Shown in pieces: positions 9,693 to 21,741 of a stretch of DNA of 64,000 bases (position 1 is the first letter of the stretch; every line of letters starts with the position of its first letter). The stretch lies in NCBI GenBank assembly GCA_048539495.1, contig JBLYPS010000001.1, positions 11,235-75,234 of the forward strand, given 5' to 3'. The position numbers and the translations under genes were made by a program. The notes below the pieces were generated by a model. It worked only from the letters and a program-made list of their open reading frames with translations, did no database searches and was not told where the DNA came from. Origin of the DNA: Dehalococcoidia bacterium. GTDB taxonomy: Bacteria > Chloroflexota > Dehalococcoidia > SZUA-161 > SpSt-899.

Positions 9693-10745
9693 TTATTTCA
9701 CGACGCGAACAGTAATCTTCCCCTTCGGCTCCCCCACTATTTCCCCAATGATGGCCGCGTCTCTGTGGCCGGTGCGATGCAGCTTCTCAAGCAGCACCTT
9801 CGCTTTCTCCGGGGAAGTGGAAATCAGCAGCCCTCCCGAGGTCTGGGGGTCGAACAGGAGGTCCGGGGCCCAGTCAGGCACACCGGCAGCAAACTCCACC
9901 ATGGCATCACGAAAATCCCTATTGCGATATGACCCGCCGGGGATAAGTCCCATTCGAGCAAATTCGATGGCTTCGGCGAAGATGGGAACCACCGAGCAGT
10001 AGATCGCCATTCCAATGGAGTTATCCCGAATCATCCCGCAGGCGTGGCCCAGAAGCCCGAAGCCGGTTATGTCGGTACAGGCATGGACTCCCACCTCCTG
10101 CATCAGCTCACAGGCTCGCCTATTCAAAGCAGCCATCTGCTCGGTAACCATGGCTACGGTTTTCTCATCGGCCATGCCCGCCTTGATTGCTGTATTGATA
10201 ATGCCCGTGCCCAGTGGCTTGGTAAGTATCAGGCTATCGCCGGGCACTGCTCCCGAATTGCGCACGATCTTGCGCGGATGGATTACCCCGGTAACCGAGA
10301 GGCCGTACTTGAGTTCCGGGTCCTCCACGCTATGCCCTCCCACCAGCGTCACCTCCGCCTCGTGGAGCTTATCCATCCCTCCACGCAGAATATCCCTCAA
10401 AATGGACATGTCCATCGATTTGCTGGGGAAACAAACGATATTCATCGCCGTGATCGGTCTACCACCCATAGCGTAGACATCGCTCAGGGCATTGGCGGCG
10501 GCGATGCGGCCGAAGTCATAGGGGTCATCAACAACGGGCGTGAAGTAATCAACGGTCTGGACGATGGCCAGATCGTCGGTTAGACGGTAGACACCAGCAT
10601 CATCGAAGCTATCCAATCCCACAATCAAGTTGGGATCGTGGGGGACTTCCAAGCCACACAGCGCCTTGTCCAGGTCCCCTGGACCGAGCTTGGAGGCTCA
10701 GCCCGCGCCGCTGACGGATTCGGTTAGACGAAGAACTTTGTCCAT
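9693..10745 (-). CDS. selD: Selenophosphate synthetase, selenoprotein form (UGA at codon 16)
   Basis: True start 10745: MDKVLRLTESVSGAG-U-ASKLGPGDL, in frame with ORF 9693-10652 (DDAGVY, TVDYFTPVVDDP, DPQTSGGLL); TGA at 10700-10698. Confidence 0.93.
10668..10684 (-). promoter_or_regulatory. Bacterial SECIS hairpin of selD
   Basis: GUCCAGG-GGA-CCUGGAC perfect 7-bp stem starting 13 nt after the UGA, G in the apical loop. Confidence 0.75.
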
Positions 10746-10774
10746 TTCCCTCCTTAAAAGGCCGATAGCGAATT

Positions 10775-10983
10775 TGGTAACTGGTAATTGGTGAGCCTCT
10801 TGCAAAAGTCGCAATTTGTCACCCTGAATTTATTTCAGGGTCTCATATCACATTCGCTTATTGAGATTCTGAAACAAGTTCAGAATGACATTTCCTATGT
10901 TTCGGGAATTTTGCAAGAGCCTGTGGTGATTGGTAATTGGTAATTGGAGGTTACCAATTACCAGTCACTATTCACCAATCACC
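10775..10983. repeat. Nested element: TGGTAAT heptamer hairpin interrupted by a MITE that itself carries a REP-like doublet
   Basis: MITE 10793-10923 (ctcttgcaaaa/ttttgcaagag, TGGT duplication); inner tgtcaccctgaa..ttcagggtctc / gagattctgaa..ttcagaatgaca at 10817-10890. Confidence 0.8.
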
Positions 10984-11070
10984 CTGTAAAATGGAGTTTG
11001 AAGTTAGCAAATCAATAGTTGCAGCCAAAAAGAAATAATTTTGCAATTTGCATTTTAGTATTTTCATTTT

Positions 11071-11328
11071 TCATTCGGTTAGTTGATGTATCCCCTGGAC
11101 TTCCAACTTGCTTCGGCTAAGTATTCCCTCAACCTTCAGCTCGTCAGCGCGCTCGAAGCGAACACATATACCACAGTCCGAGCTCAGATGCCGCGGCACC
11201 GGAATCAGCTTCAGAGGCACGCTTTCCGCCTTTAGTAGCTTTTCAGCACGGAGCGCCCCACTTATCGAGTAAAAGAGTACCACGCTGAAGGGTTCACTCT
11301 GCCCGGTCTTGTTCTTCTTAGAGAGCAA
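11071..11328 (-). CDS. DUF3343 protein (selenium-cluster associated)
   Basis: FYSISGALRAEKLLK..LIPVPRHLSSDCG pattern; upstream of selD. Confidence 0.85.
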   Translation of the reverse strand: MLSKKNKTGQSEPFSVVLFYSISGALRAEKLLKAESVPLKLIPVPRHLSSDCGICVRFERADELKVEGILSRSKLEVQGIHQLTE

Positions 11329-11899
11329 CTATCTTTCCTGCGCCCAGTAACGCCGAGGCGATATCGTACATATTGGAAATCTGCCCCACAGCGACCTTAT
11401 CCTTAATCTCATAATAACCCAGGCAGGTGCCACATGCAAGAATCTCAGTCCCCTGTGCCTCGAGAGCACGCAGATCATCCAGCACTTCGGAGCCTTCGAC
11501 TACCAACTTGACCCCGCTATTCACGAAGATGATCTGATCAGGGCTCAGGGAGACCTCGCCCAGCGTGTGGAGGAAGCTGCGCATCAGTAAGCGGCCCAGT
11601 TCTTCAGTCCCCCGACCGAAAGCGTCCGAGGCAAGGAGCAACACTGTTGGTCCGCTCACTGCCTTGCCCGGTGGCTGCTCTGCTTCAGTGGCTTCTCTGG
11701 TCAGGTGCAGATAAATTGCGCCGTCCTTCTCTTCTACTTCGACCCGGAACCCTTTGATCTTAGCCAAACGGGAGATGTTCTCCTTTGCTACCTCGCTATC
11801 AACGATGGTGGTTATCTTGTCGGATTCCCCGAAAGCCTTGTTAGTGAGGATGACCGGTTGGGGGCAGGCAAGCCCGCGAGCGTCAACCATTAAGGCCAT
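11318..11899 (-). CDS. yedF: Selenium metabolism protein YedF (TusA-like plus DsrE-like domains)
   Basis: VDARGLACPQPVI; GxGTEELGRLLMRSF; ACGTCLGYY..GQISNMYDI. Confidence 0.9.
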   Translation of the reverse strand: MALMVDARGLACPQPVILTNKAFGESDKITTIVDSEVAKENISRLAKIKGFRVEVEEKDGAIYLHLTREATEAEQPPGKAVSGPTVLLLASDAFGRGTEELGRLLMRSFLHTLGEVSLSPDQIIFVNSGVKLVVEGSEVLDDLRALEAQGTEILACGTCLGYYEIKDKVAVGQISNMYDIASALLGAGKIVAL

Positions 11900-13061
11900 C
11901 TCCGTCCTCCTTCGCTGCACCCCTAGCAACGTTAGCTATTGCTTCTACAGTGATGTTCACTTCACCTTCAGTGCTGAAATAACCCGGACTCACCCGAACT
12001 GTTCCCTCGGGGAATGTCCCCAGGGTCTTGTGGGCGATGGGGGCGCATTGCAGTCCCGGCCGACACAGAATATCATACTCTTCCTCGAGTCGCATTGCCA
12101 CCTCCGAAGGGGCTGCCCCGGCGATATTGAAGGAAAGCACCGCCACCTGTTCTCGCGCATCGCCGCTACCGTAGAGCGTGACCCCGGAAATCGCTCCCAG
12201 CCCCTCGATAAGGAGATACATCAGCCTCTCCTCCCTTTCTCGTAGGGCATCTACGCTGTGGTGCAAGACGAACTGCACTCCCGCCCCCAACCCCGCCAAC
12301 CCCACCGTGTTGGGCGTGCCGCTTTCGTACTTGTCCGGCAGAAAATCAGGCTGGTGCTCGGAATCGGATCGACTGCCGGTGCCACCACGCATCAAGGGCT
12401 GGAGCACATCTTCCATGCCCTGGCGAATGAAGAGTCCGCCGGTTCCCTGCGGGCCAAAGAGTGACTTATGCCCGGTGAACGCCAGGAGATCGACATTCAT
12501 AGAGGGTATGTCCAGAGGATAGGCGCCGGCGCTTTGAGCGGCATCGACGCAGAAGAACACCCCATGTCGGCGGGCAATTGCACCTACTTCGGCAACCGGA
12601 AGGAGGGTGCCCACCACATTGGAGGCATGATTCAGGACAATGAGCCGCGTGTTTCGCCTGACAACCTTTTCTACTTCCTGAGGATCGAGAAAACCCTCCT
12701 TGGAGCAGCTTACCACAGTTAGCTCAACCCCCCTATCCTCCAGGGCGCGCAGAGGGCGCATCACTGAGTTGTGCTCCATGCTGCTGGTGATGGCGTGATC
12801 GCCAGGGCGCAGGGTGCCGTTTATTGCCAGATTCAGTGCCTCGGTGGCATTATGGGTAAAGATGATGCGAAGAGGGTCATCGATGTTGAAGAGCTGCGCC
12901 AGGCCCTCCCGGGCCTGATATACAATACGCCCAGCCTCGATGGAAAGTCGGTGCCCGGAGCGGCCTGGGCTGGCACCCACGTGGCACATGAAGCCATTCA
13001 TCGCCTGATAGACCGCTTCCGGCTTGGGCCAGGAGGTAGCGGCATTGTCCAGATAGATCAT
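11883..13061 (-). CDS. Cysteine desulfurase/selenocysteine lyase family (class V aminotransferase)
   Basis: IYLDNAATSWPKP, SSMEHNSV, DAAQ, FTGHKSLFGPQG, RPGLQCAP. Confidence 0.92.
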   Translation of the reverse strand: MIYLDNAATSWPKPEAVYQAMNGFMCHVGASPGRSGHRLSIEAGRIVYQAREGLAQLFNIDDPLRIIFTHNATEALNLAINGTLRPGDHAITSSMEHNSVMRPLRALEDRGVELTVVSCSKEGFLDPQEVEKVVRRNTRLIVLNHASNVVGTLLPVAEVGAIARRHGVFFCVDAAQSAGAYPLDIPSMNVDLLAFTGHKSLFGPQGTGGLFIRQGMEDVLQPLMRGGTGSRSDSEHQPDFLPDKYESGTPNTVGLAGLGAGVQFVLHHSVDALREREERLMYLLIEGLGAISGVTLYGSGDAREQVAVLSFNIAGAAPSEVAMRLEEEYDILCRPGLQCAPIAHKTLGTFPEGTVRVSPGYFSTEGEVNITVEAIANVARGAAKEDGDGLNG

Positions 13062-13075
13062 AGGGCACCTTGAAC

Positions 13076-13167
13076 AGGGGGCGAATGGGAGTCGAACCCA
13101 TCACGGCGTCTTGGCCAGAGCCGCGCCCGGTTTTGCAGACCGGGGGGAACCCGGTTCCATCGCCCCC
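13076..13167 (-). tRNA. Non-canonical tRNA: tRNA-Sec-like 8/5 cloverleaf with GCA (Cys) anticodon and U73; CCA not encoded
   Basis: GGGGGCGA/TCGCCCCC 8-bp acceptor; GGAAC-CGG-GTTCC D arm; CCCGGT-CTGCAAA-ACCGGG anticodon arm; long variable arm GCGGCTCT-GGCCA-AGACGCCGT; ATGGG-TTCGACT-CCCAT T arm. Confidence 0.9.
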
Positions 13168-13186: not shown

Positions 13187-13405
13187 CTAGCTACGGGCAG
13201 GGGTTAACTCGAGCCTATACCCATCGGGAACCGGTTCTACCTTGACCGAATATCCCCTGCTCCGGGCGAGGCGAGATACATTTTCCCTGGAAACCTCGCT
13301 CTCCACCAATACGGCGAGGCGTTCACCTGGGTTCTGGTCGAGTGCCTTCTGGGTCTTAACTACGGGGACGGGGCACGAGAGACCCCGCGCATCGATTTCA
13401 ATCAT
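13187..13405 (-). CDS. TusA/SirA-family sulfur (selenium) carrier
   Basis: IDARGLSCPVPVV, 72 aa. Confidence 0.9.
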   Translation of the reverse strand: MIEIDARGLSCPVPVVKTQKALDQNPGERLAVLVESEVSRENVSRLARSRGYSVKVEPVPDGYRLELTPARS

Positions 13406-13420: not shown

Positions 13421-14485
13421 TCAATCACGCATCAGGAAGCCGACGCCCAGCATAAGAATTAGGCCTGCAACTACCGCTATCGGGCCAAAGTCCGACGGCC
13501 CTTTGGGGGAGCTTGCCAGCAAGAAGTTGTGGGCAAAGGCGGCTCCTACGAACAGGCCGAGAACGGTGATCCCGGCATCGGTGTCCCCCTCTCCCGAGAG
13601 GATCGTCTGACGCAAGGGGCAACCACCGAGAAGTGTTGCACCCAATCCAACCAGGATCATGCTGAGGAAGTTCCAGAGATGATTGGCATGAGCCACCGGT
13701 TGCCCCTCAAATCCCCAGCTCACGTTGTCCAGAATGAGATTGGATATCAGTGCTCCCACGAAGAAGGCTGCAATGCCACCGAACAGATAAGTACCCCTGA
13801 TGAGGAAAAGATCACGCCACCCGCCGACAAAGCAGAGCCGCGTCCGCTGCGCCAGGACGCCTACCCCAAGTCCGGCGAGGAGCGATATCCAGAGTGCGGC
13901 GTGCATCGATCCGGGGCCCGTCTCACTCTCAAAGATGAATCCCGGCTGGAGGATCGCCAGGAGCAGCAGTCCCAGGATAGCTGCCGGCATGATCCACCCG
14001 GCGATGGTATGCATCCTGAAGGAGCGGCCGAGGTTGAAGCCCCGTTTGAGGAAGAAGATGCCGGTCACTGCCCCTACGATGATCCCTGCCAGGGCGCTGA
14101 TGCCATTGAGGTCGCCGCCAGCAAGGCGGAGGAGGGCTCGAGTGGGGCAGCCGAGAAAGACTAATGCCCCGATCATGATAAAGGCTCCCAACAAGAAACG
14201 CACCATCGGCGAGGAGCCACCCCGGGCTCGAAACTCTCCGAACCCGTAAGCGGCGAGGAAAGCCCCCAGCACGAAGCCCATTATCTCCGGGCGGAGGTAC
14301 TGAACCACACCAGCCCGGTGCAGGCCAAGTCCGCCGGCGATATCCCGCCAGAAGCAGGCGACACAAATTCCCATATTTCCCGGGTTGCCCCACTCGGTGA
14401 GCACTGAGGCGAGCACTCCAAACACAAGGCCGCCGAGGATGATCCACATTCCCGGCGCAAACAGCCGCGAGAAATTCACTTTCAT
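13421..14485 (-). CDS. yedE: YedE-family putative selenium transporter
   Basis: GNPGNMGICVACFWRDIAG, FLGCP, GGCPLRQ, multiple TM helices. Confidence 0.92.
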   Translation of the reverse strand: MKVNFSRLFAPGMWIILGGLVFGVLASVLTEWGNPGNMGICVACFWRDIAGGLGLHRAGVVQYLRPEIMGFVLGAFLAAYGFGEFRARGGSSPMVRFLLGAFIMIGALVFLGCPTRALLRLAGGDLNGISALAGIIVGAVTGIFFLKRGFNLGRSFRMHTIAGWIMPAAILGLLLLAILQPGFIFESETGPGSMHAALWISLLAGLGVGVLAQRTRLCFVGGWRDLFLIRGTYLFGGIAAFFVGALISNLILDNVSWGFEGQPVAHANHLWNFLSMILVGLGATLLGGCPLRQTILSGEGDTDAGITVLGLFVGAAFAHNFLLASSPKGPSDFGPIAVVAGLILMLGVGFLMRD

Positions 14486-14587
14486 TGAAATGTCCCCCTT
14501 CTCAATTGCTAATGGTACCCGGCGACGCATATGGAATCATCGCTTTGCCCGCAACATAATCACCTCCTTGCGCTCCATATTTTAGAT

Positions 14588-14617
14588 ATTATATCATAGA
14601 CAGAATGGATTTGTCAA
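14588..14617 (-). promoter_or_regulatory. Consensus sigma70 promoter of the selenium operon
   Basis: TTGACA-18 nt-TATAAT with extended TGn on the minus strand. Confidence 0.65.
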
Positions 14618-21670: not shown

Positions 21671-21741
21671 ATGGTGAATGGTGATTGGTAACTGGTAATT
21701 AGGGGTACGGGGTATCACCAATCACCAATCACTAATCACCA
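21667..21741. repeat. Heptamer hairpin element (TGGTGAT/ATCACCA type) containing the engA stop
   Basis: gtgaatggtgaatggtgattggtaactggtaatt - aggggtacgggg - tatcaccaatcaccaatcactaatcacc. Confidence 0.9.

Follow-up and report, generated by a model that had tools for sequence, protein, structure and literature searches.

A selC*-type tRNA-Cys gene within a selenium operon of a Dehalococcoidia bacterium

Identification and structure of the tRNA

By analyzing a 64,000-nucleotide stretch of DNA from a Dehalococcoidia bacterium (Chloroflexota; contig JBLYPS010000001.1 of assembly GCA_048539495.1, positions 11,235 to 75,234), hereafter the window, we found that a 92-nt gene situated in a selenium operon is a tRNA of a known kind, namely a selC*-type tRNA-Cys, also called tRNA-ReC (Table 1), with all sequence-level characteristics of that class. 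It is probably a functional gene, descended from or modelled on the tRNA for selenocysteine (Sec), whose product would, by analogy with a clostridial member, be delivered by SelB to insert cysteine at UGA codons accompanied by a selenocysteine insertion sequence (SECIS).

The selC* tRNA-Cys were defined as tRNAs shaped like tRNA-Sec that carry U73 and either GCA or UCA as anticodon (Mukai 2017, PMC5389517). According to the main text of that paper, their hosts are Clostridia, Bacilli, Thermodesulfobacteria, Thermodesulfovibrio and delta-proteobacteria, and the selABCD set is complete in every case. The same text mentions 8/4 tRNA-Sec (acceptor/T stem lengths in bp), a minor form, for Chloroflexi and Actinobacteria, and describes the selC* arrangement as particular to each phylum. 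The class was later named tRNA-ReC and delimited operationally as tRNAs of 80 nt or more that have U as discriminator and either UCA or GCA as anticodon; both anticodon forms are described as mediating UGA recoding given a downstream SECIS (PMC13582414, 2026). For the member from Desulfotomaculum nigrificans, delivery by SelB, no interaction with EF-Tu and insertion of cysteine at UGA are reported in a review (PMC11415595, on Vargas-Rodriguez 2018).

ARAGORN identified a single tRNA in the entire window, a tRNA-Cys with anticodon gca at exactly the coordinates in Table 1. RF01852 (tRNA-Sec) was the only Rfam family to reach its gathering score within the window, matching positions 13077-13167 on the minus strand with 56.1 bits (gathering score 47, E 1.2e-08). 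The minimum-energy structure obtained with RNAfold is a cloverleaf of -50.2 kcal/mol (z -2.9), equalled in stability by 2 of 200 shuffled sequences. Its acceptor stem of 8 bp (GGGGGCGA/UCGCCCCC) is followed by one linker nucleotide, the D arm GGAAC-CGG-GUUCC consists of a 5-bp stem and a 3-nt loop, the anticodon arm has a 6-bp stem and the loop CUGCAAA with anticodon GCA, and the variable arm is long (24 nt) and paired. Together with the T stem of 5 bp, the acceptor stem forms an 8/5 branch, i.e. 13 bp. The discriminator U73 comes directly after the acceptor stem, the first pair is G1:C72, and CCA is not encoded. The length above 80 nt, the stem-forming variable arm, the anticodon, the discriminator and the elongated acceptor, T and anticodon stems all agree with the class definition. 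With our own covariance model R1, built from the 33-sequence alignment described below, the tRNA scored 90 bits, and all of its 24 modelled pairs are standard.

An earlier note on this DNA, made from the letters alone, had described the 8/5 branch, the 6-bp anticodon stem, the short D arm and U73, and on every one of these details ARAGORN, Rfam and RNAfold agree. The hybrid identity that it proposed, with the geometry of tRNA-Sec and the cysteinyl-tRNA synthetase (CysRS) identity elements GCA and U73, was likewise borne out. Of the checks that it suggested, Aragorn called a tRNA-Cys(gca), and the tRNA-Sec model RF01852 scored above its cut-off. It also pointed to the right class through the studies by Mukai, Soll and colleagues on selC*, but its view that a combination of 8/5 branch, U73 and short D arm matches neither of the two published types did not hold. 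The main text of PMC5389517 restricts the modified 8/4 selC* to "certain delta-proteobacteria", and the 8/5, U73, short-D form is not unusual, being present in 30 of the 80 listed loci of the pattern scan below.

Groundwater metagenomes, in two DNA and two RNA-library runs, gave contigs bridging the tRNA and both of its flanks. Within 13076-13167, these four runs show no listed variant; they may include the source sample and count as independent support for the base calls only. Since the runs are free of variants inside the tRNA, GCA and U73 are not read errors. A misreading of TCA and G73, which the earlier note had named as a refutation, was thereby ruled out, also because GCA and U73 are kept in dozens of homologs.

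Table 1. Features of the selenium operon region (positions in the window).
Feature	Position	Strand	Evidence
Sigma-70-like promoter upstream of yedE	14588..14617	minus	TTGACA, 18-nt spacer, TATAAT, 12/12 plus extended TG; consensus match only
yedE, putative selenium transporter	13421..14530	minus	TIGR04112 seleno_YedE 481.9 bits (cut-off 200); Pfam Sulf_transp
tusA/sirA-like small sulfurtransferase	13187..13405	minus	Pfam TusA 70.1 bits; directly upstream of the tRNA
selC*-type tRNA-Cys (tRNA-ReC)	13076..13167	minus	92 nt; ARAGORN, Rfam, RNAfold, own covariance model R1, covariation
Cysteine desulfurase/selenocysteine-lyase-like pyridoxal phosphate (PLP) enzyme	11883..13061	minus	TIGR01977 472.1 bits (cut-off 377); Aminotran_5
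yedF, selenium-metabolism protein with TusA-like domain	11318..11929	minus	TIGR03527 selenium_YedF 212.6 bits (cut-off 110), residues 15-202
DUF3343/Se_S_carrier small protein	11071..11328	minus	PF11823 76.5 bits
selD, selenophosphate synthetase	9693..10745	minus	TIGR00476 373.4 bits

Homologs and covariation

Homologs were sought by scanning species-representative genomes for a pattern of GCA anticodon loop, long variable arm and T loop, which gave at least 120 stretches, of which 80 loci were examined. The combination of 8/5 branch, U73, GCA and a CCA encoded right after the discriminator was present in 30 of the 80 loci listed, all from named genomes. As CCA lies exactly 5+8+1 nt past the T loop in these 30 loci, their acceptor/T branch comprises 13 positions. 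Judging by record titles, 24 of the 30 listed belong to Nitrospirota/Thermodesulfovibrionales, three to Actinomycetota (Actinomycetes, Thermoleophilia and Gaiellales), and one each to Chloroflexota and Desulfitispora (Firmicutes), with one unclassified. Another approximately 22 loci among the matches listed are from Burkholderiales and combine G73 with a D stem of 6 bp, constituting a separate type, tRNA-Sec(GCA). The remaining listed loci were allo-tRNA-like, other long-arm tRNAs or no tRNA at all.

Some of the scan matches were of other kinds. Five loci, from Mollicutes, Clostridium, Methanothrix, Bacteriovoracaceae and Longimicrobium (L052, L063, L116, L118 and L121), hold 7/5 tRNA-Cys(GCA) that measure 83-86 nt, have U73 and a variable arm of 13-17 nt, and are neither canonical tRNA-Cys nor tRNA-Sec-like. 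Three loci from Cloacimonadota (L086, L100 and L117) have a long tRNA(GCA) with discriminator G, in which the encoded CCA comes one position sooner than in the 8/5 loci, indicating a branch of 12 positions.

The alignment of 33 sequences comprised the window tRNA, 29 of the 30 8/5 loci, the 7/5-like L075, a relative from the same phylum (L023) and L055, the identical twin of L024. In this alignment, 93.0% of the 790 cells are paired, as compared to 50.5-57.9% with slid partners, and compensatory changes are found in 16 of the 24 pairs; the observed values were reached by none of 500 shuffles. The window tRNA aligns with covariation to 32 U73/GCA tRNAs from our own scans, which come from taxa named in PMC5389517, such as Thermodesulfovibrionales and a clostridial genus, and these sequences are what the comparison covered. 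Not every stem position is equally constant: only 13 of the 33 sequences, including that of the window, form the sixth pair of the anticodon stem, and five have a mismatch at the eighth acceptor pair.

When 151 genomes of the same class were scanned with R1, the next best scores were 86.8, 86.5 and 73.8 bits, followed by values of at most 60.6, and 29 further R1 loci that were inspected divided into four tRNA-Cys(gca) and 25 tRNA-Sec(tca). A BLAST search with the tRNA in 401 genomes of the phylum returned canonical tRNA-Sec at 27 of 30 inspected loci. By-eye comparison put the window tRNA at approximately 92% identity to that of G492, a genome from another family, the differences including a compensatory change from A8-U to G8-C. 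Lastly, 64 stretches were recovered in a metagenome scan for the D-arm subtype, and a long tRNA-Cys(gca) was present in 42 of these. Metagenome contigs hold tRNA copies of 100% and 98% identity, and one contig (L255) is identical to the window operon and may be of the same population.

Synteny with selenium genes

Neighbors of the tRNA were analyzed with a panel of 14 query proteins within at most 4 kb, among them YedE, YedF, TusA, DUF3343, SclA-like, SelD, SelA, SelB, LysR_Se, DCCP, and transglutaminase-like and Carb_kinase-like proteins. At least one panel gene was found in 25 of the 35 non-window loci, many of the others ending close to the tRNA. In four relatives from the same class the tRNA is part of a selenium cluster on the same strand, although with differing neighbors: yedE-DUF3343-Carb_kinase-like-tusA-tRNA-yedF; a divergent LysR_Se (NF040786) followed by tRNA-DCCP-yedF, where DCCP is a double-cubane reductase (Pfam HGD-D); yedF-tRNA-selD; and the tRNA followed by a thioredoxin-like gene, two genes without a Pfam match, and selD. 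The LysR adjoining the tRNA in L199 corresponds to NF040786, the selenium-metabolism LysR model, and a TusA homolog is located directly upstream also in L198. The synteny in related yedE operons proposed for examination in the earlier note was accordingly recovered in selenium clusters, with neighbors that differ from one to the next.

In 7 of the 35 loci, a SelB-family gene comes directly after the tRNA. Five of the seven, two of which share a genome, were traced to four genomes, each with 2-3 SelB-family genes above cut-off, and so the adjacency to selB*, described for delta-proteobacteria, is also found in Nitrospirota and Chloroflexota. One Nitrospira-labelled metagenome-assembled genome (G519) contains two selC*-type tRNA-Cys genes (L054 and L062), each directly before a SelB-family gene, and a third SelB-family gene elsewhere.

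The 42 metagenome contigs gave a similar picture. A panel gene was present within 4 kb in 29 of them (distances from tblastn matches), in 13 the gene immediately upstream, on the same strand, was TusA, and the gene directly downstream was SelD in eight, SelB in seven, YedF in three and Sec-lyase-like in two. The protein set at the tRNA loci matches the selenium neighborhood described by Lin et al. 2015 (PMC5322559), i.e. YedE, YedF, LysR_Se, DUF3343, a SirA-like protein, Sec lyase, a 2-hydroxyglutaryl-CoA-dehydratase-like subunit and a transglutaminase-like enzyme; a tRNA-Cys is not mentioned in the available text of that paper. Our literature search returned no paper tying the selC*/tRNA-ReC class to yedE, yedF or LysR_Se. 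A different kind of neighbor was seen at two Actinomycetota loci (L050:5282-5719 and L076:2230-2730), where the gene after the selC*-type tRNA belongs to the VKOR (vitamin-K-epoxide-reductase) family and is not a selenium gene.

The host genome

The host assembly (1.86 Mb in 80 contigs, 97% complete) contains 47 tRNA genes, including a canonical 76-nt tRNA-Cys(GCA) of the 7/5 type on contig 11 and, on yet another contig (C12:31203-31295; L001:1501-1593), a canonical tRNA-Sec(UCA). The latter has an 8/4 fold with one bulged T-stem base, a 6-bp D stem and G73. One selA, one selB and one cysS were found above family cut-offs, and selD is present too. The selC*-type gene thus coexists with tRNA-Sec, tRNA-Cys and selA/selB/selD. 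The extra selB or cysS paralogs that the earlier note had considered did not materialize, as the genome-wide profile search at family cut-offs gave only one of each. In a genome of the same family (G481, L201:8055-8147), a divergent tRNA(GCA) has a T arm resembling that of the host 8/4 tRNA-Sec.

The selenium operon

The genes yedE, tusA, the tRNA, the sclA-like gene, yedF, the DUF3343 gene and selD lie on one strand in this order (Table 1). The tRNA starts 19 nt past the stop codon of tusA, 14 nt separate its end from the start codon (ATG) of the class-V aminotransferase (sclA-like) gene, and the coordinates of these open reading frames (ORFs) agree with the position given in the earlier note, between tusA and a cysteine desulfurase. 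The SclA model gave 391.9 bits on the PLP enzyme, which is under its cut-off of 525, and the model for Sep-tRNA:Cys-tRNA synthase only 40.1 bits (cut-off 301). The true start of yedF is probably approximately 30 nt downstream of the ORF start. In selD, an in-frame TGA is found at 10698-10700 (codon 16, in the context SGAG-TGA-ASKLGPGDL), and SelD itself is for this reason a selenoprotein.

A consensus scan revealed no terminator-like site on the minus strand from yedE to the DUF3343 gene. The promoter-like site before yedE is likely the start of an operon transcript carrying the tRNA, and with this match upstream and no internal terminator the tRNA would most simply be part of that transcript. 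The RNA-library contigs cover tusA, the tRNA and the sclA-like gene.

Between the DUF3343 gene and selD there is an AT-rich spacer of approximately 325 nt (10746-11070) with inverted runs of an ACCAATY heptamer, which also occur at 1641-1663 and 21673-21740 of the window. The motif ACCARTYACCART has 34 copies in 21 clusters genome-wide, as compared to 0.2 expected, and looks like a dispersed intergenic repeat. As the contigs of all four metagenome runs diverge at 11007-11087, this spacer varies between strains.

Presence and absence in close relatives

Eleven out of 50 genomes of the same order had a match to the Sec-lyase-like protein at E <= 1e-60. The cluster yedE-tusA-sclA-(yedF)-DUF3343-selD is kept in five of these, namely three genomes of the same genus (84-87% identity), one of the same family and one of the same order. 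According to ARAGORN, all 11 loci lack a tRNA, including the five syntenic clusters, and in the five genomes with these clusters R1 recovered only tRNA-Sec and tRNA-Ser. The three same-genus assemblies are 58-68% complete, and the absence of the tRNA in them applies to the locus level. In two of them (G552 and G553), the tusA-sclA spacer still contains the two bases preceding the tRNA and the first 11 nt of the tRNA itself, followed by 13 unrelated bases; we infer that this 5' stub is the remnant of a deletion. A canonical selC at the tusA-sclA site was not seen in any relative, the spacer of the five being without a tRNA. In a genome of the same order (G523:C2:12399-12494, L220), a canonical tRNA-Sec(UCA) precedes the yedE operon by approximately 260 nt in the same orientation, and hence both kinds of Sec-shaped tRNA can adjoin yedE in this lineage.

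Proposed function and alternatives

Starting from the identity, structure, conservation, synteny and gene inventory observed here, we propose that the tRNA is transcribed within the yedE-tusA-tRNA-sclA-yedF-DUF3343 operon from the promoter-like site before yedE, as the sequence features and the synteny suggest. The normal tRNA-processing enzymes would excise it, and CCA would be added, the gene having none. By analogy with the D. nigrificans tRNA, the single canonical CysRS would charge it with cysteine by way of U73, GCA and G1:C72, EF-Tu would not use it, and the single SelB would bring it to UGA codons with a SECIS, where cysteine would replace Sec; the exclusion from EF-Tu is proposed to follow from the tRNA-Sec-like 13-bp acceptor/T helix. 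The SelB-family genes next to the tRNA in relatives lend indirect support to the SelB part. The tRNA may in this way supply cysteine as a fallback for, or competitor of, Sec at the UGA codons of selenoprotein genes, including that of the neighboring selD. Its location inside the operon would couple its supply to the expression of genes for selenium uptake and activation. Of the roles listed in the earlier note, that of a SelB-dependent decoder comes closest to what is published in its SelB part. Its part concerning UGY codons departs from that, the target described in PMC11415595 and PMC13582414 being UGA with a SECIS, read as cysteine.

A number of observations weigh against this proposal. 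The tRNA is dispensable at the operon in near relatives, as three genomes of the same genus run the operon without it. A TGA is present in selD at all seven loci examined regardless of the tRNA, which therefore is not needed for a Sec-type SelD. The idea that it would be required to bootstrap such a SelD without Sec was left unsupported. A hairpin can be drawn downstream of the selD UGA as a SECIS candidate, although its energy is not significant (z -1.1). With its 8/5 branch the tRNA is not a mimic of the 8/4 tRNA-Sec of the host. The RNA-library contigs are no proof of transcription, ends or levels, since DNA can occur in such libraries, and the function is carried over from the D. nigrificans tRNA by homology. 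Charging by seryl-tRNA synthetase through the long variable arm is also possible; for allo-tRNAs, G73 or U73 together with a long arm is taken to suggest serine identity in the main text of PMC5389517.

Other functions were weighed as well. The CysRS, unable to distinguish Sec from cysteine, could load free selenocysteine, and SelB prefer the Sec-charged form, thus placing Sec at UGA without SelA or selenophosphate; the handling of a free-Sec pool would then explain why the tRNA adjoins selenium carriers and an enzyme resembling Sec lyase. Misacylation of tRNA-Cys with Sec by CysRS is described in the available text of PMC11431864, and the proximity of the Sec-lyase-family gene, the selenium-trafficking operons in most relatives and the SelB-family gene directly after the tRNA (7/35 and 7/42 loci) would fit. 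Yet the available text of PMC13582414 and PMC11415595 reports cysteine insertion for the class, the genome retains the complete SelA/SelD route, and the Sec-lyase neighbor is exceptional (two of the 42 contigs and the window); we regard salvage of Sec by this route as improbable. We give a similarly small chance to an extension of it, in which the adaptor would carry cysteine when selenium is short and so act as a selenium-status switch, moving among tusA-tRNA-selD/selB/yedF operons and being gained and lost within a genus. There is even less reason to expect that the anticodon reads its cognate codons UGC and UGU where a SECIS-like hairpin recruits SelB, inserting cysteine or Sec. The cognate pairing itself speaks for such decoding, and so do the Sec insertion at targeted UGC codons reported for tRNA-Sec with GCA in the available text of PMC11415595 and the approximately 22 Burkholderiales tRNAs of this type among our scan matches listed. 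Those tRNAs, however, differ from the window tRNA in having G73 instead of U73 and a D stem of 6 instead of 5 bp, and the activity reported for the U73 class (PMC13582414, PMC11415595) is at UGA with a SECIS.

That the tRNA is a mere passenger, recently acquired or decaying, and neutral or serving as a punctuation mark for RNA processing, seems quite unlikely. The syntenic spacer without a tRNA in three same-genus genomes and two further relatives, two of them with the 11-nt stub, the geometry differing from that of the host tRNA-Sec and the by-eye identity of approximately 92% to the tRNA of G492, a genome from another family, speak for it, the identity being compatible with transfer. On the other hand, the cloverleaf is flawless, the identity elements are intact, the change from A8-U to G8-C relative to G492 is compensatory, the metagenomes hold identical and 98% identical copies, four runs list no variant inside the tRNA, and the pairing of tusA and tRNA recurs in 13 of 42 contigs. 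The processing signal suggested in the earlier note is weakened because the same operon runs without the tRNA in three genomes of the genus. The note also suggested a carrier for a lyase/TusA/YedF relay, for which no specific support emerged, the neighboring gene varying between yedF, selD, selB, sclA and DCCP. In a broader version, a Cys- or Sec-charged tRNA would be substrate or scaffold for the PLP enzyme, TusA or YedF, comparable to tRNA-dependent synthesis of cysteine or Sec. The tRNA adjoins an enzyme of the class-V aminotransferase fold and is consistently co-located with selenium/sulfur carrier proteins. We nevertheless consider a non-translational role very unlikely, with no one protein partner conserved beside the tRNA, a PLP enzyme that is an ordinary TIGR01977/Sec-lyase-like protein far below the Sep-tRNA:Cys-tRNA synthase cut-off and that same-genus relatives keep without the tRNA, and a translational role reported for the class in the available text of PMC11415595.

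Should the tRNA work like its clostridial relative, UGA in the selenoprotein genes of the host would be readable as both cysteine and Sec, and the balance between the two would hinge on an operon that at the same time serves selenium import and activation, which bears on the annotation of selenoproteomes in uncultured groundwater Chloroflexota. The synteny provides a handle on the role of these tRNAs, with tusA upstream, selD, selB, yedF or a Sec-lyase-like gene downstream and often a selenium-type LysR nearby, and genomes of one genus with and without the tRNA constitute natural controls. A Chloroflexota host of a selC* tRNA-Cys and the tight tusA-tRNA-selD/selB/yedF/sclA synteny may be new, but could already be listed in the 2017 supplements and the 2018 survey. 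The same applies to extra SelB genes outside the delta-proteobacteria and to the loss of the tRNA within one genus, which may already be in published supplements or the 2018 survey. These possibly new points are modest in weight.

Comparison with known tRNA types

The window tRNA shares with bacterial tRNA-Sec (RF01852) a score above the gathering threshold, the 13-bp branch, the 6-bp anticodon stem and the long variable arm, but differs by having GCA instead of UCA, U73 instead of G73 and a D arm of 5 bp/3 nt instead of 6 bp/4 nt. Identification as a true tRNA-Sec was rejected, as UCA, G73 and the 6-bp D stem are all missing from it and all present in the host tRNA-Sec. The tRNA-Sec(GCA) type, which is reported to place Sec at UGC (Mukai et al. 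2016, cited in PMC11415595), has the same fold and anticodon, but G73 and the 6-bp D stem of the Burkholderiales forms set it apart from the window tRNA with U73 and a 5-bp stem, and this type was likewise rejected. A canonical tRNA-Cys, with a 7/5 branch and a short variable loop, is not compatible with the 8/5 branch and 24-nt variable arm. Allo-tRNAs are, like the window tRNA, false positives in tRNA-Sec searches with a long variable arm. According to the main text of PMC5389517, their branch comprises 12 bp (8/4 or 9/3) and their identity is mostly that of serine, as opposed to the 13 bp (8/5) and cysteine identity found here, and the branch was the ground for rejecting them.

Within the selC* class, the delta-proteobacterial 8/4 tRNAs accompanied by selB* and cysS* (main text of PMC5389517) have U73 in common with the window tRNA, and some relatives of the latter precede an extra SelB gene. 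The window tRNA differs from them in its 8/5 branch, the lack of a T-stem bulge, GCA instead of UCA and G1:C72 instead of A1:U72, and its host differs in having a single selB and a single cysS. As compared to the class at large, for which that main text names Firmicutes, Thermodesulfobacteria, Nitrospirae and Proteobacteria, the host belongs to Chloroflexota and the gene lies inside a yedE-tusA-sclA-yedF operon; yedE, desulfurase, sulfur and operon are not mentioned in the main text of the paper. The window tRNA resembles selC* tRNA-Cys/tRNA-ReC in the long variable arm, the longer acceptor and anticodon stems, U73 and GCA, in being an extra copy beside tRNA-Cys, tRNA-Sec and selABD, and in the anaerobic or subsurface setting.

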